Made by a program: the position numbers and the translations under genes. This document shows, one piece after another, positions 29,411 to 60,876 of a DNA stretch of 64,000 nt. This stretch comes from Candidatus Bathyarchaeota archaeon (lineage in GTDB: Archaea > Thermoproteota > Bathyarchaeia > Bathyarchaeales > Bathycorpusculaceae). Positions within the stretch are counted from its first letter, which is position 1; every line of letters begins with the position of its first letter. The notes under the pieces were generated by a model, which was not told the DNA's origin, ran no database searches, and saw nothing but the letters and a program-made list of their open reading frames with translations. The stretch covers positions 1 to 64,000 of the forward strand of contig CAVRFW010000013.1 in the NCBI GenBank assembly GCA_963720565.1. The letters run 5' to 3'.

Positions 29411-29483
29411 GTCGCGCTATTGTTGCTGATGCTAAGAAAGAAATAGAGTCTGGGAACTGCAAATCTTCACTTTCCCTTTTTTT
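29411..29483 (+). pseudogene. Remnant 3' tip (VALLLLMLRKK*) plus terminator of a lost beta-propeller paralog
   Basis: Matches the LMLRKK* ends of 52283-54903 and 55095-57678; followed by TTCCCTTTTTTT. Confidence 0.65.
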
Positions 29484-29537: not shown

Positions 29538-29649
29538 GGAGCTGAGTGGGCTCTACGTTAGAGTCAAGAGGCTATGCAGTAGCCTTCATGATTTGCACCT
29601 AAATTTTCCCTTTATCCTTTCAGGTTTCGCTCCGGAGCCTCGGCAAACC
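29538..29649 (+). ncRNA. Putative BHB-bounded structured RNA, copy A
   Basis: GCTG-AGT-GGGCTCT ... GGAGCCT-CGGC-AAA-CC; three G.U pairs in the flanking helices; relaxed outer helix. Confidence 0.6.
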
Positions 29650-29748: not shown

Positions 29749-30546
29749 CTAATAGATGTCTCCTGACGCGGTTTTCCATAGCAAATCAAAATAGTTTTGA
29801 GCGAAATCAACGAAACTTGGGTTATTTGACCAGAGGAGAGGCACTTCACCCAGGATACCTGTCTCAGTCGAAAAGAAAACTTCCTTGTCAATTACTGAGA
29901 AAACTATTGGTCTATCGTCGAAGCTTAGTTTCAGTTTGAAGCGTGGCTCTTCCACAAGATGTCGCATGGTTCTTGAGAACAACTCCTTCTCTTTTTCATT
30001 GATATAAAAAATGAAACGCGTATCTACCTGTCTACTCAGTGCTTGTTGGGTAATTGCTAAGAAATGTTGAGTATTCTTGGCGCTATTCTTCCATGGAGCC
30101 AAGACGCATATGCTAGCACTAGCCTCTTTGATTGCTCTTCTTGACTTCATCAAGATAGTCTTTTTTCCTGAAATAATCGAGAATTGAGATGTGTTTTGTT
30201 CATCTTTCGCGTTTTCCGTGTTTTGATTCAATTTCTCTACGAGTTTTAGTGCTTCTTCATGCAGGGTAGAGTTTTCCTTATTTTTACGTTCAACAAGAAC
30301 TGAGAGAGCCAGTTCGGGTGAATTAGCCCTGAAAAGGCTGGGTGACGCAATAAGTTTTTCAACCAATCCCAGTTTCTGCAATAAGGGCATTACTCGGTAG
30401 ATGTCTTGCTGGGCTATGTTGGAAATTCTTGAAATTTCTTTTGCACTAGTCGGACCTAGTTTGATCAGTGAAAGATATGTTTTAGCTTGGTTAACTGTGA
30501 GGCCAAGTTGAGTTAGAGTTTTAACGTTTTTTTCACTTTTTAGCAT
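29749..30546 (-). CDS. TrmB-family transcriptional regulator
   Basis: LGLTVNQAKTYLSL..QDIYRVMPLLQKLGLVEK; LWSNNPS..YFDLLW. Confidence 0.9.
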   Translation of the reverse strand: MLKSEKNVKTLTQLGLTVNQAKTYLSLIKLGPTSAKEISRISNIAQQDIYRVMPLLQKLGLVEKLIASPSLFRANSPELALSVLVERKNKENSTLHEEALKLVEKLNQNTENAKDEQNTSQFSIISGKKTILMKSRRAIKEASASICVLAPWKNSAKNTQHFLAITQQALSRQVDTRFIFYINEKEKELFSRTMRHLVEEPRFKLKLSFDDRPIVFSVIDKEVFFSTETGILGEVPLLWSNNPSFVDFAQNYFDLLWKTASGDIY

Positions 30547-30678: not shown

Positions 30679-33204
30679 ATGAATCTCCAAAAAACCAAAA
30701 TTCTTTCTATGCTATTTCTGACTTTGCTGATGCTTTCTGCAATTCCATTCGTCAACATACCTCTTGTAAAAGCTGCCGACATCAAAACATATGCGTTTGT
30801 AGCTGTAAGTCCGAACCGAATCTCGCTTGGCGAGCAGGTAGTTGTGAACATTTGGCTTCAACCAATCCCCCCTAGCCAATTCTATGTTTTTCATGGTCTT
30901 TCGGTAAAAGTTACGAAGCCTGATGGAACCATAGAAACATTAGGACCATACACAACATATACGATTGGGTCAGCATACTTCAATTATGTACCTGCGTCAA
31001 TTGGCAATTACAGCTTCAGCCTAACCTATCCTGGTGAGAATTTTGCCAACGGCACGGTAACCTATTTGCCCAGTGAGAGCCCGCAGAGCGCAACGCTTAG
31101 TGTACAGCAAGAACCAATACCGGGAAGAGCAGAGACTCCGCTTCCCACTGAATATTGGACTCGTCCTATCAATGCAAGAAACAGACTGTGGAGTTCGATT
31201 GCAGGAAACTGGCTGATACGCGGTTACAATACCAGTTACAGCATGGGTAATAGCGATGCTGGAAAAGGTTTCAACCCATACAGCCAAGCGCCAAGAACCG
31301 CACACATAATGTATACAAAAGAGCTAGCTCTGGGAGGTCTTATCGGAGGAGACTATGATTCGACAGGCTTCTACGCTGGGCTAACATACGAAGCGAAACT
31401 TACTCCGCCAATAATCATGGATGGAAAAATGTACTATCGCGAGTACCCAAGCGACTTCGGGTATTTCCAAGGAGTAGCAGGATACTATCCAGGTGCCGTC
31501 TGCGTAGATTTGCGCACGGGTGAAGAACTATGGCGAAACGACAAAATGAACATAGACGCTGGACAAATATACAATTATGTCTCTGGAAACCAAATGGGCG
31601 GTATCCCATACTTGTGGGACTTCGGATCGTGGGGAGCTTTCGCATTCTTTGCAGTAGGTCCATCCCTAATGTTCAGACCCACTACGTGGCATATGTATGA
31701 TGGAAACACTGGAGACCCTATAGCCAACTTCACGGGCGCACTGCCATCAAGCTTCATACAGACAGCTGCTGTCGTCTACGGAGACGACGGAACAATGTAC
31801 GTGTACTTCCTCAGCGGAGCAGGTGGGTGGCTTACCATGTGGAACTCAACCAAAGCTCTCGAGAGCGCTAACATTGTTTCCAATACTATGGGGACTAATA
31901 TCGGCTTCTTGAGAAATGTGCCTGGAACCTACAACTGGAGCAAGGGAATACAGTGGAACGTCACTGTGCCAGTGCAAATGGTGCTGGATTCGTCTGGCGC
32001 GCTTTTCCAGTCTGCATCGGGCGTTACGGGCGACGTGCTCATAGCTGCGGTTGAAAGCAGGGCGATTTCGTACAAGGAAATAGGCTACAGCTTGACAACG
32101 GGACAACAGTTATGGGTGCATGATCTCGATCCTGATCACTACACCGCCGCTAGAGCCTTCGGGGAGGGCAAGTACGCCGGCATGAATCCCAACAGCAGAA
32201 GCTGGTTTGGCTACGATGCTAGCACGGGTAACCGTTTATGGACCAGTGATCCAGCCGACTATCCTTGGGGAACCTACGGTCTTTCAGGCGTGATCGCGTA
32301 TGGCAAGCTATACGCTCTAAGCTACGACGGAAAAGTGCACGCTTTTGACCTTGACACAGGTGATGAGATTTTCAACTACTATAGCGGCGAAGACGTATAC
32401 CGTGAAACTCCCTACGGAACTTTTCCGTTCTACTACGGTCCAATAATCGCTGACAACGTGGTCTTTGCCGGTAACGGCGAACACAGTCCGACCCAACCCC
32501 TGTTCAGAGGGTATCAACTACACGCTTTCGATGCTCAAACCGGAACTCCAGTGTGGACTCTGCCTGGATGGCATGTCATCCAAGCCATTGCCGATGGTTA
32601 CCTCGTATCATACAACGCAGAAGACAACAACATGTACGTTTTCGGCAAAGGGCCGAGTGCAACAACTGTTTCCGCTCCAAATGTCGGAATAACATTTGGC
32701 TCGTCTGCAATCATCAGCGGCACTGTCACTGATACATCGGCTGGTGCAAAACAGAATGAGCAGGCTGCTCGTTTTCCAAACGGCGTTCCCGTGGTTTCTG
32801 ACGCAAGTGTGAGCGCCTGGATGGAATACGTCTACATGCAACAGGCTTGCCCAGCTGACGTTACAGGCGTTCCAGTGACGATAGACGTGATAGACTCCAA
32901 CGGCAATTACCGGAACATAGGCACCGCCACAAGCGACACATACGGCGCATATAGCATCATGTGGACACCCGATATTCCGGGCAAGTACACCGTCATCGCA
33001 TCGTTCGCTGGGTCCGAATCGTACTACGGTTCTTACGCGCAAACTGCTTTCGGTGTAGAAGCACGACCTGAACCTTCGATGGGACCAACCGCACCACCTG
33101 CATCGTTGGCTGATCAGTATCTGCTTCCAGGAATCGGCGGCATCATCGCAGCAATCGCAGTAGTTGGCGTAGTACTAGCAGCGCTTCTGCTTAGAAAGAA
33201 GTGA
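30679..33204 (+). CDS. Cell-surface PQQ-like beta-propeller repeat protein, paralog 1
   Basis: Signal peptide, Ig-like domain, PLPTEYWTRPI, DLRTGEELW/DASTGNRLW/DAQTGTPVW blades, C-terminal TM + RKK. Confidence 0.9.
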   Translation: MNLQKTKILSMLFLTLLMLSAIPFVNIPLVKAADIKTYAFVAVSPNRISLGEQVVVNIWLQPIPPSQFYVFHGLSVKVTKPDGTIETLGPYTTYTIGSAYFNYVPASIGNYSFSLTYPGENFANGTVTYLPSESPQSATLSVQQEPIPGRAETPLPTEYWTRPINARNRLWSSIAGNWLIRGYNTSYSMGNSDAGKGFNPYSQAPRTAHIMYTKELALGGLIGGDYDSTGFYAGLTYEAKLTPPIIMDGKMYYREYPSDFGYFQGVAGYYPGAVCVDLRTGEELWRNDKMNIDAGQIYNYVSGNQMGGIPYLWDFGSWGAFAFFAVGPSLMFRPTTWHMYDGNTGDPIANFTGALPSSFIQTAAVVYGDDGTMYVYFLSGAGGWLTMWNSTKALESANIVSNTMGTNIGFLRNVPGTYNWSKGIQWNVTVPVQMVLDSSGALFQSASGVTGDVLIAAVESRAISYKEIGYSLTTGQQLWVHDLDPDHYTAARAFGEGKYAGMNPNSRSWFGYDASTGNRLWTSDPADYPWGTYGLSGVIAYGKLYALSYDGKVHAFDLDTGDEIFNYYSGEDVYRETPYGTFPFYYGPIIADNVVFAGNGEHSPTQPLFRGYQLHAFDAQTGTPVWTLPGWHVIQAIADGYLVSYNAEDNNMYVFGKGPSATTVSAPNVGITFGSSAIISGTVTDTSAGAKQNEQAARFPNGVPVVSDASVSAWMEYVYMQQACPADVTGVPVTIDVIDSNGNYRNIGTATSDTYGAYSIMWTPDIPGKYTVIASFAGSESYYGSYAQTAFGVEARPEPSMGPTAPPASLADQYLLPGIGGIIAAIAVVGVVLAALLLRKK

Positions 33205-33216
33205 ACAATCGAAACA

Positions 33217-33238
33217 AACTTTCACTCTCCCCCTTTTT
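33217..33238 (+). terminator. Pyrimidine/U-tract terminator
   Basis: ACTTTCACTCTCCCCTTTTT shortly after the stop; same style after all paralogs. Confidence 0.6.
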
Positions 33239-33287
33239 AGTGGGACAATAAAACATCCGAACAACAAAGAACAAAGAGGAGAAAGAT

Positions 33288-33398
33288 GGGCTGAGTGGGC
33301 TCTGGATTGAACTCTTGATATCGCAGTAGCGGTATAGATTTAGCATTCTCAATTCTCCTTTTTCTCTTATTTTTCGCGTTGCAGAGCCCCAGCAAACC
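33288..33398 (+). ncRNA. Putative BHB-bounded structured RNA, copy B
   Basis: GG-GCTG-AGT-GGGCTCTG ... CAGAGCCC-CAGC-AAA-CC. Confidence 0.65.
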
Positions 33399-33445
33399 CC
33401 AACTGCACGACCTTATTGTTGAAGCACAGTCAAGATTGGACGATT

Positions 33446-33906
33446 AACAACGGTGCATTTGCTTGGAATATTGCAACCGGCGATGTTGATTTTGACGGTG
33501 AAGTGGAGATTACCACTGTCGGGTGCATGGGAATCGATCAACTCTACGATCCTGACATAAGAATCTGGTCTGTCTAAAAAACGGAAGGTGACCAGCTTAT
33601 TCTTGTCCTTGTGCTTGTAGGAATAACTGCCGTGATAGGGATTTCCTCAGGCGTTCTTTTTGCGCTAAAGAAGCGCAAGCAACGTTGTTCCCACAATAAT
33701 GGATTATTAGGCTTGGACTGTCATACGCAATCCTTAAGCCAGAAGACACAGGTGCGAGTGTGCCGATCGAAATCTTCGGCACGGCAGCCACTACAGTCGC
33801 AGCATCCGTCATCGCCATAGCATTTTTCACAATTGCAATGCAAAGGCGAAAAGAACCCGCTTTCTACGCTTCTTATTCTTTCAACGAGATAATGAAAGAC
33901 AAATAA
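33446..33906 (+). pseudogene. Two adjacent orphan C-terminal fragments of surface proteins (FG-GAP-like repeat + TM; second TM + basic tail)
   Basis: WNIATGDVDFDGEVEITTVG...IWSV*KTEGDQLILVLVLVGITAVIGISSGVLFALKKRK, then ...IFGTAATTVAASVIAIAFFTIAMQRRKE...KDK*. Confidence 0.6.
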
Positions 33907-33938
33907 AGGGTGCCTAGCAAATTACCTGTGGGATTTGA

Positions 33939-34268
33939 ATGACAATCTTGTTTTACGTAAAAACAAATGAAAGCCCGAAAATAGTTGGAGAAGTAATCTG
34001 TAAATTCAACTATACCCGCGGTGAGCATCCTGAAGACGAATACAGTTGGATTGTGCAGGAAAGAAAGAGCGGAACCGAAGAATACTGGGAGATTAAGAGC
34101 AAGTACTCTGGATTGAAAGACCTTGCTTCTGTTGGTTTTACCTACCGAAAAGGAGACACTGTAGTCCTTTCAGATGTAGATGACGGATTTGCCTCAAACT
34201 TTTTAGACCCCTTGATTGAAAAGTACGGGTTTGATAACGTGAAATGGATAGTTGTTCCAAAACGCTAG
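33939..34268 (+). CDS. Hypothetical protein
   Basis: ORF 109 aa. Confidence 0.7.
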   Translation: MTILFYVKTNESPKIVGEVICKFNYTRGEHPEDEYSWIVQERKSGTEEYWEIKSKYSGLKDLASVGFTYRKGDTVVLSDVDDGFASNFLDPLIEKYGFDNVKWIVVPKR

Positions 34269-34342
34269 CCCCAACAAACAAGCACGGTTGCTGTCAGATA
34301 ACACGCCGGAAAATATGAGCGTCCAAAAGGCTGTTCAAGGGT

Positions 34343-34724
34343 ATGAAGCCGAAAATCGTGAAAGCTACTTCACTGAAAGAGTCATTGACGCCTGAAGGAT
34401 GTTTTATCTCTGAGAATTGGGGACTAGCTGAGTTTTGGGGATGCGGCAGTGTCGATTGCACGCGCCAGAGTTGAACCTGGAGTAACCACAAAGGCACATC
34501 ATTTGAAAGGAATACGAGAGATTTACCTCATCCTGAAGGGGAACGGAAAAGTCCGAATCGGCGGCCTTGAACCTGCCAACGTTACAGAAGGTGACGCCGT
34601 CATTATTCCAGCGGGAACAAGCCAAAAAATAACGAATGAAGGAAAAACTGACTTGGTTTTCTACTGCATCTGCACGCCCGCATTCACGCAGGACCGCTAC
34701 CGCGACGAAGAGACAAAAATGTAA
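34343..34724 (+). CDS. Cupin domain protein, frameshift near 34435
   Basis: MKPKIV.. start at 34343 joins SIARARVEPG..AHHL..EIYLILKG..GDAVIIPAG..FYCICTP. Confidence 0.85.
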
Positions 34725-34890
34725 CAGAAAGGACTAAGCTGCCGTGTACGCTTATTCTCCTTCTCTCTGGTCCACCGTACCCAACCGATTAACCTCTAGG
34801 TGCAAGCATAAGGAATACAGCGCTAGAAACGTACTTATTGAACTTGTTTGAAAGAATTGGCATTACTAGGGTTGATTCGGGGGAAAAGAG

Positions 34891-35803
34891 TTGAAGTATT
34901 TCGAGTGGTTAGCAACAACCAAAACCAAGTTGGTTGCTCTGCTAGTTGTGCTGGTTATCGTTCTCGCAAGCCTTATCGGAGCATTGGCGTTCAATCAATC
35001 GGATACACCTATTTCAACTCCAACTCCAGCACCTACTTCAACTCCAACATCCTACTCCAACACCCACTCCAACACCTACTCCAACTCCAACACCCACTCC
35101 AACACCTACTTCAACTCCAACACCCACTCCAACACCTACTCCTACTCCAACACCCACTCCAACGCCTTCACCTGCTCCAACTCCAACACCTCCACCAGAC
35201 GGAAACTGGGACGGGGGTACAGAATTTCTAATTCGAGACGAGATCCACACGTTTTCCGACAATTCACCTGTCGCCGTAGAGAACTGTGGCTGGCATTTCT
35301 GGTACGACACGTCAAGGTATCCTCAGAATTGGTACTCGCCTGTCGACTTCTGGAATGGCAAGATTTACACCCGCTGGGAGATTATAACACAGCCCACCAA
35401 CACAGCCTGCAGCTTCCAGATAGTCTGGTGGAAAGCCCTTCCAGAAGTAGTCAACGGCGTGGAAGTTGTGCAGGAGCTTTGGGATTTGCCCCAGCATCTT
35501 GCGGGGGGCGCAGGGTCAGTTGGCACATTCAGCACGGTGCTGAGCAACTTTCATGTTCAAGGATTAGGTATCGATTTGCACAACACAGGCAATCTCTGGC
35601 GTCAGGGAATCGCGATTATTGATGATGCCACCGGAAGCCCGGTATCTCCCCCTTCATGGGGATATGACGATGAGCCTTGGAACAGCCGCGCACAATGGTT
35701 CCCCATGAAAATGCGTTTGACTATCGTCGCCGTGGCAGCAGGAGCCACCTTCTCCGGATGGGATAGCTGGGTATCGACGCCTCCCACAGACGGCACCAGT
35801 TGA
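34891..35803 (+). CDS. Membrane-anchored protein with long PT linker and Trp-rich C-terminal domain; frameshift near 35050
   Basis: N-terminal TM in the frame of ORF 34891, PT repeats and globular domain in the frame of ORF 34946. Confidence 0.8.
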
Positions 35804-52282: not shown

Positions 52283-54903
52283 ATGCATAAAAGTAATACT
52301 GCAATAGCGATTGTCCTATTTCTGATGTTTACGCTAACACTCACAGCATTACCTCTGGCTAAAGCACACGATCCTCCGTGGCAGATTCCAACGTATGCAT
52401 ACATACAAGCTGTTCCAAACCCCGTTGGTGTCGGACAGGCAGCCCACGTTTACATGTGGATTGACAAGATTCCTAACGGTGCCTCCCCAACCAATAACAT
52501 CCGACTGCACGACTACAAGCTCACGATCACGACGCCAGATGGCACAACAACAACAAAGACCTGGGCTACCGTTGAAGATACAACGTCAAACCAAGGTTAC
52601 TCTTTTACTCCCGCCCAAACAGGTACATTACACTCTCAAGTTCGATTTTCCAGGATTGACATTCACCTACACCGATTTAGTCTTTAGTTTCTTTGGTCCC
52701 CCTGGACCAAGTGCATACATCAACGATACTTATCTCCCTAGCACCGCAACAACTACGCTAACCGTTCAGGAAGAACCACTATACACGTACCCAACCACTC
52801 CACTTCCAACAGAATACTGGACACGACCAATATACGGAGAAAACTCAAATTGGTGGGCTATCTCTTCAAACTGGCTAGGCACTGGTGCACCCGGCTATGA
52901 TAACGGCATCGGAGGCGCTGGCTTCCCAGGCGACGCAATAGGCCCCCAAACCAGTCACGTCATGTGGACCAAACCCTTCCAAAGCGGCGGAGTCGTAGGA
53001 GGAAACAACTATGAAATCCAAGGAGACACATTCTTCGAAGGCTCAGCATACGCCAACAGATTCAACAACCCAATAATCGTTGATGGAATGCTCTACTACA
53101 AGGAACCCCTCTCTTTCGGCAGCGGGTCAGGCGGACCAACCAAATGCGTTGACCTGCGGACCGGACAAGTCATCTGGTCCCGCACCGACGTACCATCGCT
53201 ATCATTCGCCTACATGTATGACGTACAAAGCTTCAACCAGCACGGAGTCTATCCGCCAATTCTGTTTGCGAGCACCGGTGGATTCTTTTTCTCGGGCCCT
53301 GTGACTTTGAGAGCCTATGACGCATACACAGGCGACCATCTATTCAACTTGACAGGCGTCCCTGACGGCCAGACGGACATGGGTCCCAAAGGGGAGTACT
53401 TGGTCATCGGACTCACAAACTTGGGCAACTTCATGGCGCCAAACTACTATTTGACACAGTGGAACATGTCAAAACTATGGGAAAGCCAATACTTCGGGGC
53501 AAGCACAACACCCTCCATCATTCCACCAATTACCGACGCAACCAACCCAAGCCTATACGACTACAACATGTCAATGCCAACGCTCAACACTATGGCTTCG
53601 CCCACCATGCTTGCAGCCTTCACCGGGGACGTCGCGCTCTTCAGGAGCGGATCCTACCCTTGCAGGTGCAAGCACCTCGTTCAGTGCGCCAAGCAGCTCT
53701 CCCTACACGTACTTCGCAGTGAACCTCAACTCATCCAAGGGCGCAATCGGGTCCATTCAGTGGTCAAACACGGTCACCCCGCCAACAGGCAACATCACTG
53801 TCTCGTTCGCAGCAGCCGACCCGGACACCGATGTGTTCGTTGAATACCAAACAGAAACCATGCAGTACGTTGGATATAGCATGACGACAGGCCAGAAAAT
53901 ATGGGGACCAATCGGCAACCAAGACGCACTAGCCTTCTACTGGATGGGCTACAGCGGTCAAGGTGCCCAAGTTGCCTACGGAAACCTCTACAGCTGCAGC
54001 AACATGGCAGGAATAGTCTACTGCTTTGACCTGAAAACCGGAACCCAATTGTGGTCATACGGCAACGGCGGAGAAGGAAACAGCACACACAGCGGCTTCG
54101 AAGTACCGGGACCATATCCAACTATCATATATGCCATCGGCAACGACGTAGTATACACAGTGACCAGCGAACACACGGTTGAAACACCGATATACAAAGG
54201 CGCACTCACAAGAGCCATCAACGCCCACACCGGAGAAGAAATCTGGACGCTTTCAAACGACAACAACGCAGGTTCCTCAGCAGCTGCCATCGCAGACGGC
54301 TACGCAACCATCGCCAACGGCTATGACAACCAAATCTACGTCATCGGAAGAGGCTCTAGCCTAACCACTGCAACCGCGGGACCGAAAGTTCAGACATTCG
54401 GAAACAACGTGATCATAGAAGGCACAATCATGGACAGCTCCTCCGGCACGAAACAGGAAGAGCAGATTGCCCGTTTTCCAAACGGAGTCCCCTGTGCATC
54501 TGATGCAAGCATGAGTGACTGGATGAGCTACATCTACCAACAACAACCGTTTCCAACAGACTTCACAGGCGTCGAAGTATCAATTGACGTTTTTGACTCT
54601 AACGGCAACTACCGAAACATAGGCACAGCAACAACCGATGCAAAAGGCATGTACAGTTTCACATGGACCCCAGATATTCCAGGCGACTTCAAGGTAATCG
54701 TGACTTTCGCAGGCACAAACGGCTATTGGCCATCAAGCTCGGAAACAGTCTTCAACGTAATGCCCGCCCCGGAAGCCACCGTCGCCCCCACAGCATCCCC
54801 TGCATCATTAGCTGACCAGTACATGCTACCAGGAATTGGCGTCATAGTCGCTGCAATCGCAGTAGTCGGCGCTGTAATAGTGCTGATGCTCAGAAAGAAG
54901 TAA
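52283..54903 (+). CDS. Cell-surface PQQ-like beta-propeller repeat protein, paralog 2 (frameshifts ~52625, ~53660)
   Basis: Three overlapping ORFs join to the full paralog architecture ending LMLRKK*. Confidence 0.88.
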
Positions 54904-54979: not shown

Positions 54980-55085
54980 GAGATTTGGTTTTTTCTGTAT
55001 TAATATTGTGTTATTACAAGAAGTTATCTTCTTCCAGTCCTACTTGGTCGCAGAAGCATTATTGCTTCTTAAAATGAAAGGAGAA
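54980..55085 (+). promoter_or_regulatory. Duplicated promoter/leader block, copy 2
   Basis: See 52170-52275. Confidence 0.85.
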
Positions 55086-55094
55086 TAAGAAAAA

Positions 55095-57678
55095 ATGAAA
55101 TTTGCTAAAACTACATCTTTGTTTGCTTTGATTCTGATGATAACGCTAACAATCCCCATGATAATGCAAGCACCTGTAAAAGCGGATTCGACGGTGAATG
55201 TTAAAACTTATCTGTTTGTCAATGCGGCACCTAGCCCCGTGGGCGTCGGTCAAACTATATTCGTTAGCCTCTTCTTCAGCAAACCTGTACCCATTATCGG
55301 CGGATTCGGCGGCGCAACCCTGCTTGAAAATCTAAAGGTCAATATTGTCAAGCCAGACGGAACTAATGAGACACTCGGACCATATACATCTGACACGACA
55401 GGCGGTGTAGGCGGACTCACTTACACGCCAGCTACAACAGGAACCTACACCTTCCAAGGTATATTCCCTGGGCAAAATATTGGGATGGACTCTTTCACCA
55501 ACACTACCTATCATATGAATGCAGATATGAGTCCTGCCGTCACAGTTGTCGTACAGGAAGAAGCGGTAGGGGGCTATTTCTAGTCCTCCGCTTCCAACCG
55601 ATTACTGGACACGTCCATTATACGCAACAAACTACGATTGGGCGCAAAAGATTGGCGGAAACTGGTATGGCTTAGGAAGACCCGCGTTCAACCATTGCGG
55701 TGGATACGATGCCTCAAACAACAACTACAATCCATATAGCACTGCACCGAAAACTGCTCACGTTTTGTGGACCAAACCAACTACAACCGGAGGCCAACCT
55801 GGCGGCGAAACAATCGCTGATCAAAACAGCGCGTACTGTGCATCTTCTCCACTCTACCACAGCTTTGAGCCGGTGATTCTGAACGGAATAGTCTACTATA
55901 ATTATTGGGCAGCTCAAACAGACAATGCAGGCATCCTTGCAGTCGACATTCGCACAGGAGAAACACTCTGGCACAAAAACACCACTGACATATTGATTTA
56001 CGGTCAAGTTATGACGTTCCACAACAACGAGGAATTCGGCTCTCAAGCATTTCTATGGACATCACATGAGGCTGGCATAGGACCCATGGGCATGTTTGGC
56101 CCAACAATCATCTACGAATACAAAATAATCGATCCAGTAACAGGAAATGACATGGCCACCGTAACTGACATTCCCAGCGCAATCGGTGGTATGTTTTCAA
56201 CATCAATAGGCGCATCAATAGATAAAGAGCCAACCACTGGATTCTATTGCTCAGGAGGAATACTAATCCACTGGGTGGACAGCGGCAAACTCTACATGTG
56301 GAACTCAACTCTCATCCTAGCCCCTCCCTTTGCCTTCTTCGCGACACCATACAAGCCAACAGGCAGCTACAACTTCACAGCCGGCATACAATGGTCGGTA
56401 ACTCTCCCTGCAGCAAATCCAGCATATAGTATAGGACAAGCTCCTATAACCGACGAAGCAATAGTATTGACTTCATATCCCTCAATCCTTCCGACTTTCG
56501 CCACACAATACGGCGGTCCTACCGCTACAGACATAGCATACAATCCTAAAACTGGAGCACTCTTGTGGGGACCAGTAACCCAGACTTTGACGGAGCAGAA
56601 TCAAGTAGGCGTAGTAGCTGCAGGCGAGGGCGTCTATGTAAGACACGACAAAGATACAAATGAAGCGTTCGGATATTCACTGACAAATGGACAGAAACTC
56701 TGGGGACCAACCCAGCTTGTAGGCAACGCTCTAAGCCACCTATATGAATCTGCCGCAATCGCTTATGGCAGAGTTTACATTTGGGACTACGGCGGCTACT
56801 GCAACGCTATTGATCTTGAAACTGGACACCTTGACTGGACCTACACCCGCGGATCCTCTGGCTATGATAACCCATTCGGCTCATATCCTCTCTGGGTCTA
56901 CTCCTCCCAAAGCATTGCTGACGGAATGCTATTCCTCTCCGAAGGAAAGCTGTACGATCCACCTCTGTTCCCTAATGCACGAAAACTAGCCATAAACTGC
57001 ACTGACGGCTCAGTTGTCTGGTCGATAAACGGAGCATTCCAAAGAGACGTAGCACCTATCGCAGATGGCGAAATGCTTGCATGGAACGGATATGACGGCC
57101 AAATATACGCTTTCGGCACTGGAGCAACTAAGACTACTGTCACCGCACCTAACGTGGGCGTTACGACTTCCACGCCAATAACGATAACGGGTACAGTAAC
57201 GGATATCTCATCAGGCGCATCGCAAAATGCAGTTGCATCGAACTTCCCCAATGGCTTACCATGCGTTTCTGACGCAAGTATGACTCCATTTATGGAAGCC
57301 GTTTACGAGCAGCAAACAATGCCAACCAGCCTGACCGGAGTAACAGTAACAGTATCTGTCACCGACATAAACGGCAACAGTTACGACATAGGCACAACAA
57401 CAACTGACCCAACCACAGGTTTCTACAGCATAAACTGGACACCCACCATACCCGGCAACTTCCTTGTCACTGCAACTTTCGCAAACACTCAATCATACTA
57501 CGGATCCTCCGCTAAGACAGCCTTCTACGCAAGCGAAGCCCCTGCTGCCACTCCCGAACCGACTCAGGCACCTGCATCACTAGCTGACCAGTACTTGCTT
57601 CCTGCAACGGGCGGAATAATCGCGGCAATCGCAATAGTCGGCATAGCGATAATTGCGCTGATGCTCAGAAAAAAGTAG
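55095..57678 (+). CDS. Cell-surface PQQ-like beta-propeller repeat protein, paralog 3 (frameshift ~55580)
   Basis: ORF 55095..55583 continues in a shifted frame SPPLPTDYWTRP... into ORF 55765..57678. Confidence 0.88.
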
Positions 57679-57727
57679 ACGCTTGAGAAGACCGAAATCT
57701 TCTCTTTCCCCTTTTTTAGTCAACCAA
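57679..57727 (+). terminator. Hairpin + U-tract terminator, identical to 54904-54952
   Basis: 49-bp exact repeat. Confidence 0.85.
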
Positions 57728-57767
57728 TAACGAGTACAAAGGAGAAGGATGGAGAGTTTAGAAGGAT

Positions 57768-57873
57768 GGGGCTGAGTGGGCTCTGGAACAAGTCATGACT
57801 GTCTAGTCAGCAGTCAAGAGTTGAATTTCTTTCCTTTCTCCTTACAGTATAATTCCGGAGCCCCAGCAAACCC
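57768..57873 (+). ncRNA. Putative BHB-bounded structured RNA, copy C
   Basis: GGG-GCTG-AGT-GGGCTCTGGA ... TCCGGAGCCC-CAGC-AAA-CCC: strict bulge-helix-bulge. Confidence 0.7.
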
Positions 57874-58159
57874 CTATTTATCTTTACTCAGGAGGCGCTT
57901 GGGGTCCAAAATCTTCAAAGAAGCAAGTCAGTCTTGGATCTTTCATGGTTAATTAAGAATTCTGCATGGAAATACCCAGATAATTATTTCAACCTCAGTC
58001 TGAGTGCGTGTAACGCATAAGTTGGTTATTCTCAAATCTTACTGGCTGCTTCGTTTAGTTTTTTCCGTGTTTTTGCCTGTGCTAAATAGTATTAAATACA
58101 AGTTGGTCTGAAAGGAGCATTGGCCTTGAAAAGGGCTTATAATGAAAGGAGAATAGAAA

Positions 58160-60691
58160 TTGACTAGAAATAGAATTGCTGCAGCGATTGTTATGTTTCT
58201 GATGTTAAGCATGATCATTGCGACAGTTGCTTTTCCGGCTGTTCGAGCACAGATTCTTCCCTCGTTCCTGCTAATCAACGTTGCACCTAACCCCATCGGC
58301 GTCGGACAAACCGCGCAGGTGAACGCTTTTCTAAGTAAACCGCCAATGACAGCGGGTCTGGGTGGTTCCGGCGACATGTTCAAAGGCATCACGGTGGAAG
58401 TCACGAGGCCTGACGGAACAAAGCAAACTCTGGGACCATTCACATCTGACGCAACAGGAGGAACCTACACCGCTTTCACGCCTAGTACAGTTGGCAACTA
58501 CACATTCAAAGCGTCTTACCCAGGGCAACGTATAGAGGCATGGTCGTACTCGCCGTTTGGTCCCCCGACTTTTATCAATGTTACATATACGGCCAGTACT
58601 AGCCCAACAGTAACCCTTGTCGTACAGGAAGAAGCTATACCGACATATTCCAGTCCTCCCCTTCCGACGGAATACTGGTCTCGCCCAATATACGCAACAA
58701 ACTACGGGTGGGCTCAACTTGGCGGAAGCTGGTTTGGACTTGCACCGGCAGTATTCGCCACCACTGGAGGGTATGATGCAACTGGAAACTTCAATCCATA
58801 CACCACCGCACCAAACACTGCTCACGTAATGTGGACAAAACCCACGCATTTCGGAGGACAAGCAGGATCACCTATAAGCGCCGACCAAATGAGCCAATAC
58901 ATGTCCACAACGATAGCCACGAACTTCTTCGAACCCGTAATCCTTAACGGAATACTCTACTACACTCATTTTGCGGGTCCAAACGCCGCCAAAGCAAGCT
59001 GGGAAGCTGTAGACATACGCACAGGAGAAGTCCTGTGGAGCAGATCAGCGGGCGAAACAGGCAATGAAGTCATTCGCATGGGCCAAATCCTGCGTTGGCA
59101 TTCGATTCAAGAATATGGTTCTTGGGCTTTCCTATATAGCTGCGAATCGGGAGGATTCTTCCAAGCAATATCCTTCTTCTCAATATATGATGCATTCACA
59201 GGAGAATTCGTAGCAAACATAACTGGAGTTCAGAATCCATCATTTCTGATGGATCTTGAATCAGAACAGCAGGGAACATTACTAGGCTACTACGTCGCTT
59301 CAGATGGCAACTTGACTCTTTGGAACTCGACCCGACTAATGATGAGCAATAGTTGGGATCAGATAACTATCCGTCCAGCCGGCACATACAATTGGTCGAC
59401 AGGAATAGAGTGGTCAGTGCCGATGCCAACAACGGTTGGAAACGCACCCATAGGCGGATCGATGGGCATTGCCGCAATAACTCCCGAAGTGATATTGCTC
59501 CGTTATGCTCCTTCACCCGGCATGTTTGTCGAACTCAGTTACGGCTATCAGATCACCGCAGGTATCGATGCAAAAACTGGAAGGTTGCTCTGGGGACCAA
59601 CAAACCAAACAATACCTAACCTTCAAGACGTGGCTATAATAGCAGCAGACGAAGGTGTCTACGTATTGCACAACAAAGACACGAATGAAGCATACGGTTA
59701 CTCACTAGAAACAGGGAACCTAATGTGGGGACCAGTTAAACTTCCAGGAAACGCTTGGGCCGTTATGTCACGGTCCGCGGAAATCGCCTACGGCAAAATA
59801 TTCATCTGGGACTTCGGCGGCTACGTGAATGCTTTGAACGCAGATACAGGAAGTATCGAGTGGACTTTAGTCCCGAGAAGTGCTGGCTACAACACTGGCT
59901 ATGGCATCTATCCCCTTTGGTACACTGGAAGCATATGCGACGGAAAGCTATTCCTCTCAGAGAGCCACATGTACAATCCGCCGCTGTTCCCAGACGCTCA
60001 AAGACTCGTTATCGACTGCGAAACAGGAGAGCTTGTCTGGAGCGTACTAAGCTTCGACGGGCGAGTGCCTGCCGCTCATGCAGACGGCTACATGGTAGAG
60101 TGGAACAGCTACGATAACCAAATATACTCATTCGGCAAGGGTCAAACCGCCACCACAATCGCAGCTTCGCCAAAGGTTTCAGTGCAAGGCAACAAAGTAT
60201 TGGTTGAAGGAACTGTTACTGACGAATCACCTGGAACGAAAGATTCCGATAGGACAGCTCGTTTTCCAAACGGCGTCCCAGCAGTCTCTGACACAAGCAT
60301 GAGTGCATGGATGGAATACGTTTACATGCAACAGCCCAAGCCTACGGACACAACTGGCGTTGAAGTAGTCATAACCGTTCTTGATCCTAACGGCAACTGT
60401 TACGAGGTAGGCAGAACAGCAAGCGACATGGACGGCTTTTTCAAGCTGACGTTTGAACCAGAAGTCCCAGGCGAATACACCGTATATGCCTCGTTTGAAG
60501 GCTCAGAGTCATACTGGCCCTCATCTGCGCTCACCGCTATAAGTGTGGCAGAAGCAACTGAAGCTACTCCTGAACCAACACAAGCGCCTGCAACTATGGC
60601 TGAACAGTACTTGCTGCCCGGAGTAGTCGGCCTGTTCGCTGCAATCGCAATCGTCGGCGTCGTATTAGCACTGCTACTCAGAAAACGCTAA
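58160..60691 (+). CDS. Cell-surface PQQ-like beta-propeller repeat protein, paralog 4
   Basis: Intact 843-aa ORF, same architecture, ends LLLRKR*. Confidence 0.9.
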   Translation: MTRNRIAAAIVMFLMLSMIIATVAFPAVRAQILPSFLLINVAPNPIGVGQTAQVNAFLSKPPMTAGLGGSGDMFKGITVEVTRPDGTKQTLGPFTSDATGGTYTAFTPSTVGNYTFKASYPGQRIEAWSYSPFGPPTFINVTYTASTSPTVTLVVQEEAIPTYSSPPLPTEYWSRPIYATNYGWAQLGGSWFGLAPAVFATTGGYDATGNFNPYTTAPNTAHVMWTKPTHFGGQAGSPISADQMSQYMSTTIATNFFEPVILNGILYYTHFAGPNAAKASWEAVDIRTGEVLWSRSAGETGNEVIRMGQILRWHSIQEYGSWAFLYSCESGGFFQAISFFSIYDAFTGEFVANITGVQNPSFLMDLESEQQGTLLGYYVASDGNLTLWNSTRLMMSNSWDQITIRPAGTYNWSTGIEWSVPMPTTVGNAPIGGSMGIAAITPEVILLRYAPSPGMFVELSYGYQITAGIDAKTGRLLWGPTNQTIPNLQDVAIIAADEGVYVLHNKDTNEAYGYSLETGNLMWGPVKLPGNAWAVMSRSAEIAYGKIFIWDFGGYVNALNADTGSIEWTLVPRSAGYNTGYGIYPLWYTGSICDGKLFLSESHMYNPPLFPDAQRLVIDCETGELVWSVLSFDGRVPAAHADGYMVEWNSYDNQIYSFGKGQTATTIAASPKVSVQGNKVLVEGTVTDESPGTKDSDRTARFPNGVPAVSDTSMSAWMEYVYMQQPKPTDTTGVEVVITVLDPNGNCYEVGRTASDMDGFFKLTFEPEVPGEYTVYASFEGSESYWPSSALTAISVAEATEATPEPTQAPATMAEQYLLPGVVGLFAAIAIVGVVLALLLRKR

Positions 60692-60876
60692 ACATCTTGA
60701 AAGCACAAGCTTTCAACTTCCCCTTTTTTAGTCAAACAATAAGCAATCGAAATAACAAAAATTGGTACATGGATAAAGCCATCTAACACTTGAAACAATT
60801 GTATTGGGGCGCGAGCGCCTTTCTTATAAAGAACCTTCCCCATAAAGAACAAATCACAGAAACACTGCGTGCCAAG

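Follow-up and report, generated by a model that had tools for sequence, protein, structure and literature searches.

What is the repeated element that stands behind surface-protein genes of the beta-propeller type in Candidatus Bathyarchaeota archaeon, and what might an RNA made from it do? The question is raised by three copies, A, B and C, in a stretch of 64,000 nucleotides (contig CAVRFW010000013.1 of assembly GCA_963720565.1, positions 1 to 64,000), referred to here as the window. The genome of the window (G000) comprises 2.09 Mb in 13 contigs and is 88.8% complete; contig coordinates in it are given as C, the contig number and a colon, e.g. C9:7052. An earlier sequence-only reading of the window had interpreted the copies as RNA elements bounded by a motif of the bulge-helix-bulge (BHB) type, the substrate of the archaeal tRNA-splicing endonuclease EndA. 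Judged from its sequence, the interior of the element mirrors, in antisense, the Shine-Dalgarno/start region of the propeller gene family, a relation that had been missed in that reading. The element may be excised by EndA as a probably circular RNA acting in trans on sister genes.

The repeated element and its antisense interior

The coordinates and the terminal sequences reported earlier for A, B and C were both found to be correct when the sequence was read (Table 1). Within the window, exact matches to the 14-mer GCTGAGTGGGCTCT occurred exactly three times, at 29541, 33290 and 57771, and exact matches to the 15-mer GAGCCYCRGCAAACC likewise exactly three times, at 29635, 33384 and 57858, all on the + strand. 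From 5' to 3', each copy consists of a short G-rich outer strand, GCUG, the bulge AGU, one strand of the inner helix, an interior of about 70 nt, the inner-helix partner, CAGC (CGGC in A), the 3-nt bulge AAA and CC(C). The helices described in the sequence-only reading could be reproduced: the central helix is GCUG/CAGC, with one U.G pair in A due to its CGGC, the bulges AGU and AAA each lie 3' of the central helix, the inner helix of A comprises 7 bp, that of B 8 and that of C 11, and the G-C pairs of the outer helix number three in C and two in B, with none adjoining in A. The arithmetic of the predicted excised pieces was also correct, i.e. 100 nt (29547-29646), 100 nt (33296-33395) and 93 nt (57777-57869).

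The genome contains seven intact and three decayed or truncated copies. When the reverse complements of the seven interiors were compared by blast, the best matches besides other copies of the element were starts of propeller paralogs, for example C9:7030-7049 (C12 copy, 20/20), C1:70428, C3:164095, C9:12689, C13:55072, C13:52266, C9:9956 and C13:58138. Complementarity to the seven interiors was scored for start windows (-35 to +44), of which 1904 were left of 1905 after one overlapping a truncated element had been dropped; the 15 N-termini of the family were set by blastp, independently of this score. The family starts ranked 1-8, 10, 14, 15, 159, 172, 204 and 463 of 1904, and thus took 11 of the top 15 places. 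The Mann-Whitney test gave p 1.7e-10 against all windows and 2.8e-10 against the 1168 other windows with a Shine-Dalgarno-like motif, values which overstate the difference because the family starts are paralogs and purine-rich, so that the ranks are the fairer measure. The best of the 1904 windows was a family start for six of the seven copies, B and C included, while the best window of A was unrelated. Besides the Shine-Dalgarno sequence, the matches also take in the spacer, the start codon and the codons directly after it. In this genome, a copy never had the gene preceding it as its best match (scores of 13.5 vs 20.5, 11.5 vs 16, 6 vs 16 and 10 vs 16).

The same relation was observed in a distant relative of family f7 (G076), a genome of a single 2.15-Mb contig with 13 elements. 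Eleven of these lie 41-52 nt behind paralogs of 832-929 codons (stop-to-stop frames), the distances being measured to the model match, which starts about 10 nt before the outer helix. The reverse complement of a G076 interior, GAAGGUGAAAAAAUGAAAAAAC, is identical over 22 bases to a paralog start region (GAAGGTGAAAAAATGAAAAAAC, 22/22) and then runs on into AUUGCUACUAUCACUUUG, corresponding to codons 11-16 (IATITL) of the signal peptide of another paralog; the interior thus stems from the 5' end of a gene, less an internally deleted stretch. The median score of G076 interiors was 16.5 on G076 family starts vs 10.5 on G000 starts, and that of G000 interiors was 15 on G000 family starts vs 10 on G076 starts. 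On these scores the antisense tract is seen to follow the start sequence of its own lineage. Of the 11 G076 cases compared, a single one had the gene in front as its best match.

Folding of the excised piece as a circle yielded a rod, in which the inner helix is capped by a 7-nt loop (CAGCAA+U) and a pyrimidine tract of 25-30 nt is left unpaired in the interior. The anti-Shine-Dalgarno pentamer was at least 80% unpaired in the circular fold of 34 of 49 copies. In the genus of G000, a purine tract complementary to the interior pyrimidine tract was also observed immediately 5' of each element (AAGGAGAAGGA before C, 57740-57767; AGAGGAGAAAGA, 33268-33287). Such a tract, which is absent from G076, could keep the antisense tract masked until the element is excised.

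Bulge-helix-bulge geometry and candidate processing enzymes

A covariance model was built from the seven intact copies of G000 alone, with stricter filters in use. The family extended beyond the three copies of the window and its end stem covaried, the two points on which a covariance check had been suggested earlier. In 37 aligned copies, 96.2% of the cells paired vs 88.5% in shuffles, a statistic that is favoured by the fitting of this alignment to the model; 11 of the 16 pairs changed on both sides, and none of 500 shuffles reached the observed values. Pairing was at most 55.5% in controls with slid partners. Nine of the ten modelled inner-helix pairs showed changes on both sides, and the pair types were convincing, e.g. 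G-C, G-U and A-U at the first inner pair. Folding of the + strand, deduced earlier from the helix substitutions, was borne out by 42 G.U vs 17 A.C cells in the modelled pairs.

The BHB motif is defined by two bulges of 3 nt with a 4-bp helix between them (PMC6379350). This 3-4-3 geometry is kept in the homologs, as the sequence-only reading would have it: 43 of 51 distinct copies showed the strict hBHBh' form, defined by four central pairs, bulges of 3+3 nt, at least three inner pairs and at least two adjoining outer pairs. Both B and C pass, with two 3-nt bulges on opposite strands and a 4-bp helix between them. Lacking any adjoining outer pair, A does not qualify; it is a decayed copy, not a working member. 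The central helix is near-invariant, with GCUG in 49 and CAGC in 49 of the 51 copies, and AAA forms the 3' bulge of 49 of 51. At the 5' bulge the length is 3 nt throughout, the sequence being AAA in 20 copies, AGU in 17, AGA in 6, AAU in 5 and others in 3. The outer helix has a median of 3 bp family-wide and at least 5 bp in 19 of 50 copies, and 9-12 bp are reached in f7 genomes. Forcing the BHB fold had a median cost of 0.3 kcal/mol, with at most 1 kcal/mol in 33 and at most 3 kcal/mol in 45 of the 51 copies; for the copies of the window, the constrained fold lay 2.4 (C), 2.8 (B) and 13.2 kcal/mol (A) above the minimum-energy fold, and the end stem was absent from the minimum-energy fold of A. 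Single-sequence folding gave z values of -2.89 for C, -0.15 for B and -1.40 for A, and was convincing only for C. The hairpin that had been placed at the same position in each interior is present in C (UGACUG/CAGUCA), but family-wide support was only modest, with an interior stem of at least 6 bp in 23 of 51 copies vs 150 of 510 shuffles, and it was rejected as a conserved feature.

An internal control for processing of the EndA type is offered by the rRNA of the same genome. The 16S rRNA lies at C9:260696-262189 (best match to the archaeal small-subunit model), and its flanks fold into an 18-bp processing stem that continues into UUCC-CUCC-AAA-UCCAG / CUGGA-GGAG-CAA-GGAA. This is a 3-4-3 BHB motif with the bulges AAA and CAA, each placed 3' of the central helix in the strand to which it belongs; the two sides of the motif, at C9:260617-260632 and C9:262207-262222, lie 71 nt before and 18 nt after the 16S. 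Going by archaeal pre-rRNA in general, the pre-16S stem is probably the EndA site. The elements have the same handedness as this motif. The canonical handedness of the BHB motif follows from the tRNA 37/38 argument. A sequence likeness between the element and the pre-16S motif was looked for and rejected, as none was found beyond the geometry and the A-rich bulges. No 23S was found within the 8 kb examined around the 16S.

Two genes of the EndA family scored above the Pfam cut-off, with 99 and 76.9 bits; both are open frames of 189 aa, and together they suggest a heterotetrameric enzyme. The genes lie in the regions C9:270157-270390 and C5:259007-259261. Heterotetrameric EndA has been described with a broad substrate range (PMC6379350). 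An RtcB gene is also encoded (493 bits). Introns were called in 12 of the 41 tRNAs that ARAGORN detected in the genome, though some very long ones are doubtful.

Table 1. Positions of the elements, their parts and the associated genes in the window
Feature	Position	Strand	Basis or remark
Element C, whole BHB-framed unit	57768..57873	+	Model match 114.9 bits, E 1.2e-24; strict hBHBh'
C outer helix, 5' strand GGG, pairs with CCC 57871-57873	57768..57770	+	3 contiguous pairs
C central 4-bp helix, 5' strand GCUG, partner CAGC 57864-57867	57771..57774	+	Sequence
C 5' bulge AGU, predicted cut after 57776	57775..57777	+	Geometry; cut site inferred from canonical BHB rule
C inner helix, 5' strand, partner 57853-57863, 11 bp, one U.G	57778..57788	+	
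C interior hairpin UGACUG/CAGUCA	57796..57816	+	Folding; family-wide support modest
C pyrimidine-rich antisense tract	57824..57850	+	Unpaired in predicted circle
C anti-Shine-Dalgarno UUUCUCCUU	57835-57843	+	Best of 1904 start windows is family start C9:7052
C 3' bulge AAA, predicted cut after 57869	57868..57870	+	Geometry
C predicted excised, possibly circular, 93-nt RNA	57777..57869	+	Inferred from geometry; circular fold
Element B, predicted excised RNA 33296-33395	33288..33398	+	108.4 bits; strict hBHBh'; best target family start C9:9975
Element A, decayed copy behind gene remnant	29538..29649	+	88.9 bits
PQQ_2 propeller surface-protein gene before C, 637-aa frame	55765..57678	+	N-terminal part in other frame, 55095-55583
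841-aa propeller surface-protein gene before B	30679..33204	+	
Remnant of paralog C-terminal anchor (..LLLMLRKK*) before A	29411..29446	+	
Terminator-like hairpin GAGAAGA/UCUUCUC, C-rich stretch and T6 run, between stop and C	57685..57717	+	
Shine-Dalgarno and TTG start of next paralog (58160-60691), candidate target	58138..58162	+	
Shine-Dalgarno and ATG start of paralog fragment 55095-55583, candidate target	55072..55097	+	

Gene context and competing explanations

The proteins encoded before the elements have Ig-like domains and match the PQQ_2 beta-propeller; a hydrophobic anchor followed by LRKK forms their C-terminus. The distance from the stop codon to the element, estimated earlier at about 85-90 nt, was 92 nt for A, 84 nt for B and 90 nt for C. 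An open reading frame (ORF) of at least 80 codons ends within 260 nt upstream on the same strand for 42 of the 51 distinct copies; of the others, several lie at contig ends. Of those 42, 39 have a T-run of at least five between stop and element, and 36 have an anchor-like stretch with a basic tail, so that the proposal of an element travelling with the propeller gene family is upheld by 36 of 51 copies. All 15 paralogs of G000, with or without an element, have at their 3' end a hairpin of 6-7 bp with a covarying stem (among them GAGAAGA/UCUUCUC, UGAAAGC/GCUUUCA and GUGAAG/CUUCAC), followed by UUUCCCCUUUUUUAG. Hairpin and T-run look like the genes' own terminator, with the element placed after it. 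The element had also been considered as a 3'-end processing signal; in its pure form this is less likely because the terminator-like hairpin and T-run, a module found in 15 of 15 paralogs, already lie between stop and element, and because the antisense interior would provide the element with a likely job of another kind. The outer helix begins at a median of 29 nt from the end of the T-run (24-30 nt in 19 of 39 copies), a spacing which suggests that a TATA-like box of a separate small transcription unit would also fit. The same 3' hairpin was observed in the window at 33205-33238 and 60692-60731 as well; its shape is that of a bacterial-style terminator, here in an archaeon.

We infer that the element is transcribed, cut by EndA, ligated and active as a trans-acting antisense RNA, probably as a circle, a reading whose chances we regard as evenly poised. 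Its transcripts would either run on from the gene in front through the T-run or start at a separate promoter belonging to the element. EndA would then cut after the second base of each bulge, and ligation, probably by RtcB, would give a circle of 93-100 nt. The rod-like circle would expose the pyrimidine tract of 25-30 nt and pair in trans with the start regions of sister paralogs, whose translation, rather than that of the gene in front, would be dampened. If so, this would be the first case of archaeal splicing machinery making trans-acting regulators and a natural example of circular antisense RNAs, and it would point to the control of a large cell-surface protein family in uncultured sediment archaea. 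Speculative, and rather unlikely, is the further proposal of a paralog-exclusion or coat-switching circuit of Bathyarchaeia, in which each expressed surface-protein gene would co-produce, via the tRNA-splicing enzymes, a stable circular antisense RNA shutting off the translation of its sister paralogs, with EndA and RtcB forming a dedicated archaeal pathway for regulatory circular RNAs.

Several observations weigh against an excised antisense circle. The central helix is found in a shifted register in the minimum-energy folds of B and C, and the outer helix has only 2-3 bp in the copies of G000 and its genus. As the central helix and the 3' bulge are near-invariant, the geometry could be a by-product of a sequence-specific site for another protein. 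On the target side, the p-values are inflated as stated, the gene finder behind the start windows was crude, G000 had to supply the non-family background for G076, and duplex energy, rejected as a target test since it discriminates poorly, placed 0 of 15 family starts for C and 5 of 15 for B below the minimum of 300 background windows. The RtcB frame shifts by +1 near C5:338215, owing either to an assembly error or to a broken gene: at C5:338032-339343, two frames overlap at 338201-338232 and GVRLL continues as TTSLSEKDVRPRL in the +1 frame. As this is a metagenome-assembled genome, the break may be an assembly error. A search for RNA runs yielded only small shares of the sampled words (0.05-0.15), in every case as assembled contigs. 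Contigs of four runs matched, within 57000-58600, only the upstream gene (57161-57311 and 57442-57606, identical short pieces) and left 57648-58133 uncovered, which is no evidence either way.

Possible, though doubtful, is a structured antisense or 3'-untranslated region (3'-UTR)-derived RNA that is not cut by EndA, the bulged stem serving as a clamp or protein-binding site that presents the tract on a linear RNA. Near-invariance of GCUG/CAGC and of AAA (49 of 51 each) would not be required by an EndA that reads shape, and the short outer helix of this genus also suits an uncut RNA; nor did the RNA contigs, which left the element uncovered, show a circular or spliced junction. Against this, the spacing and handedness are exactly those of the pre-16S BHB motif in the same genome, the bulge length is fixed at 3 nt while the sequence of the 5' bulge varies, and EndA substrates outside tRNA and rRNA are known (PMC7714728).

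Distinctly unlikely is a switch in cis, in which the tract would mask a Shine-Dalgarno sequence on read-through transcripts, either that of the gene that follows or that of the mRNA containing the tract, and excision by EndA would relieve or set the masking. C does lie 290 nt before the start region of the next paralog at 58160, and the purine tract just 5' of it is complementary to its interior. However, C alone precedes an intact paralog in G000, with B preceding paralog debris; the gene in front is not the best match in the cases compared, save for the single one in G076; and the downstream gene at 58160 scored 11 with C vs 16 for the best target of C.

A non-functional repeat, either similar to a miniature inverted-repeat transposable element (MITE) or left over from inverted duplications of gene 5' ends that tandem gene duplication passed on, is very improbable. 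In its favour, the inverted-repeat ends resemble terminal inverted repeats, some copies are decayed or truncated, the flank up to about the 5' edge of the element is common to paralogs with and without it, and the interior clearly goes back to a gene 5' end. Ends bound by a transposase would, however, not be expected to show compensatory changes inside single copies or an excess of G.U on one strand, and the antisense tract keeps step with the start sequence of each lineage. The same single context in 36 of 51 copies, from at least 11 genera, likewise argues against a MITE or the end of an insertion sequence, target-site duplications not having been searched for.

Scarcely credible is a function of the minus strand as a small ORF or decoy ribosome-binding site: a Shine-Dalgarno-like sequence with ATG is present in 32 of 51 copies, and five G076 copies give ORFs of 17 codons, but 13 of 51, C included, are without such an arrangement, ORF lengths scatter between 1 and 21 codons or run open to the end, the helix substitutions favour the + strand, and the minus-strand ATG is explained by its complementarity to the target start codon. 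The small ORF was rejected on the missing start arrangements and scattered lengths. A spliced ORF was also considered, since removal of C joins ATG GGG CTG AG to A CCC... and opens a frame of 53 codons; it was rejected, B and most relatives having preserved neither that start codon nor the frame leading up to the element.

Distribution, related systems and neighbouring features

The further intact copies of G000 lie at C3:32908-33011(-), C5:3966-4067(-), C9:16769-16868(+) and C12:137-247(+), and the decayed or truncated copies at C12:107391-107514(-), C13:112545-112657(-) and C5:347861-348001(+). The covariance model yielded seven strong matches in this genome (E 5e-26 to 4e-17) and two weaker full-length ones, and one truncated copy was found by eye. 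Among 101 related genomes, G000 included, model matches were obtained in 18, with 2-15 per genome and from at least 11 genera; they occurred in 13 of 60 genomes of family f1 and in 4 of 6 of family f7, and the genomes searched from ten further families in the order gave no match. The full set amounts to about 130 matches. Of 151 genomes sampled evenly across the class, 11 had matches at E<=1e-5, all in f1 (7 of 15) or f7 (3 of 5), and none was found in the genomes searched from 29 other families. In two f7 genomes, tandem elements about 35 nt apart were observed, the second with a different interior (L073:1501-1630 and 1664-1787; L062:1657-1793 and 1501-1621). The 3'-end motif AGCAAACC occurs twice at C12:107515-107560, just upstream of a decayed copy without the 5' central helix. 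About 70 nt after the element (CCAAAATCTTCA..TCATGGTTAATTAAGAAT; window 57895-57960) are conserved between C and the flank of the C3 copy (L032), showing that the duplicated block extends past the BHB unit.

No Rfam 15 family, C/D box sRNAs included, reached its gathering score in the window, and a search of the loci of six copies at E up to 10 returned only a 16.2-bit match to sR28 (L002 2001-2079), off any element; the elements thus match no Rfam family. A tRNA intron or disrupted tRNA was rejected, as the joined exons give a GCUGAGA loop without U33 when the sequence is read and ARAGORN found no tRNA in the window. The earlier description of the elements as neither tRNA nor rRNA holds, since they have no tRNA or rRNA host. 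In the full-text literature searched, no description of such an RNA family was found.

Trans-acting antisense small RNAs (sRNAs) mask the Shine-Dalgarno/start region of their targets, and the bacterial ones include sRNAs derived from 3'-UTRs. As far as its sequence can tell, the element family has the specific complementarity to this region of its putative targets that is expected of an antisense regulator, and it resembles such sRNAs in its pyrimidine-rich single-stranded tract complementary to Shine-Dalgarno sequence and start, and in its location at the 3' end of protein genes. It differs from them in the predicted biogenesis by splicing enzymes and the predicted circle, in having paralogs of the preceding gene as putative targets and in its archaeal host.

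In archaea, BHB motifs in tRNA introns and in the processing stems of pre-16S and pre-23S rRNA are cut by EndA and joined by RtcB, the rRNA stems yielding circular intermediates. With the BHB motif as defined in PMC6379350, the element shares two opposite 3-nt bulges and a 4-bp helix between them, the helices to either side being 7-11 bp long on the inner and 3 bp (C), 2 bp (B) or none adjoining (A) on the outer side; as in pre-rRNA stems, cuts are predicted after the second bulge base and a circular product is predicted. Unlike these motifs, it is without a tRNA or rRNA host, occurs in multiple copies, has a near-invariant central helix and carries an antisense tract against a protein-gene family. 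The two BHB-spliced RNAs other than tRNA and rRNA that PMC7714728 names are the cbf5 intron of Crenarchaeota and a 46-nt intron in the 5' UTR of HVO_1309 in Haloferax volcanii; the HVO_1309 piece occurred in circular form, and recombinant enzyme cleaved it in vitro (Schwarz et al. 2020, PMC7714728). These resemble the element in that the BHB motif lies outside tRNA and rRNA and is attached to transcripts of protein genes. They are single loci in a leader or coding region, neither excised piece being known to have a function, whereas the element stands behind genes after a terminator-like signal, in 2-15 copies per genome and with complementarity to targets. The nearest literature also includes a survey of circular RNAs (PMC12558985). 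Stable or functional RNAs arising through the tRNA-splicing endonuclease and a ligase are the tRNA intronic circular RNAs (tricRNAs) of animals (PMC4536317) and the circularised, permuted signal recognition particle (SRP) RNA of Thermoproteus (PMC4731332); here the host RNA is another one (a tRNA intron and SRP RNA, respectively), and neither is known to have an antisense relation to a gene family.

Broken propeller paralogs were observed elsewhere in the window. Debris of C-terminal repeats and anchors follows directly after B (33399-35803), an N-terminally truncated propeller frame of 482 codons lies at 53455-54903, and the gene before C is spread over two frames (55095-55583; 55570-57678). 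Small Lrp/AsnC-like ORFs, recognised by eye, occur in pairs on the opposite strand beside paralogs (C3 and C5 loci) and beside the stand-alone C9 copy (C9:15100-16700). A regulator of the TrmB family is encoded on the - strand between A and the gene at 30679 (window 29749-30546).

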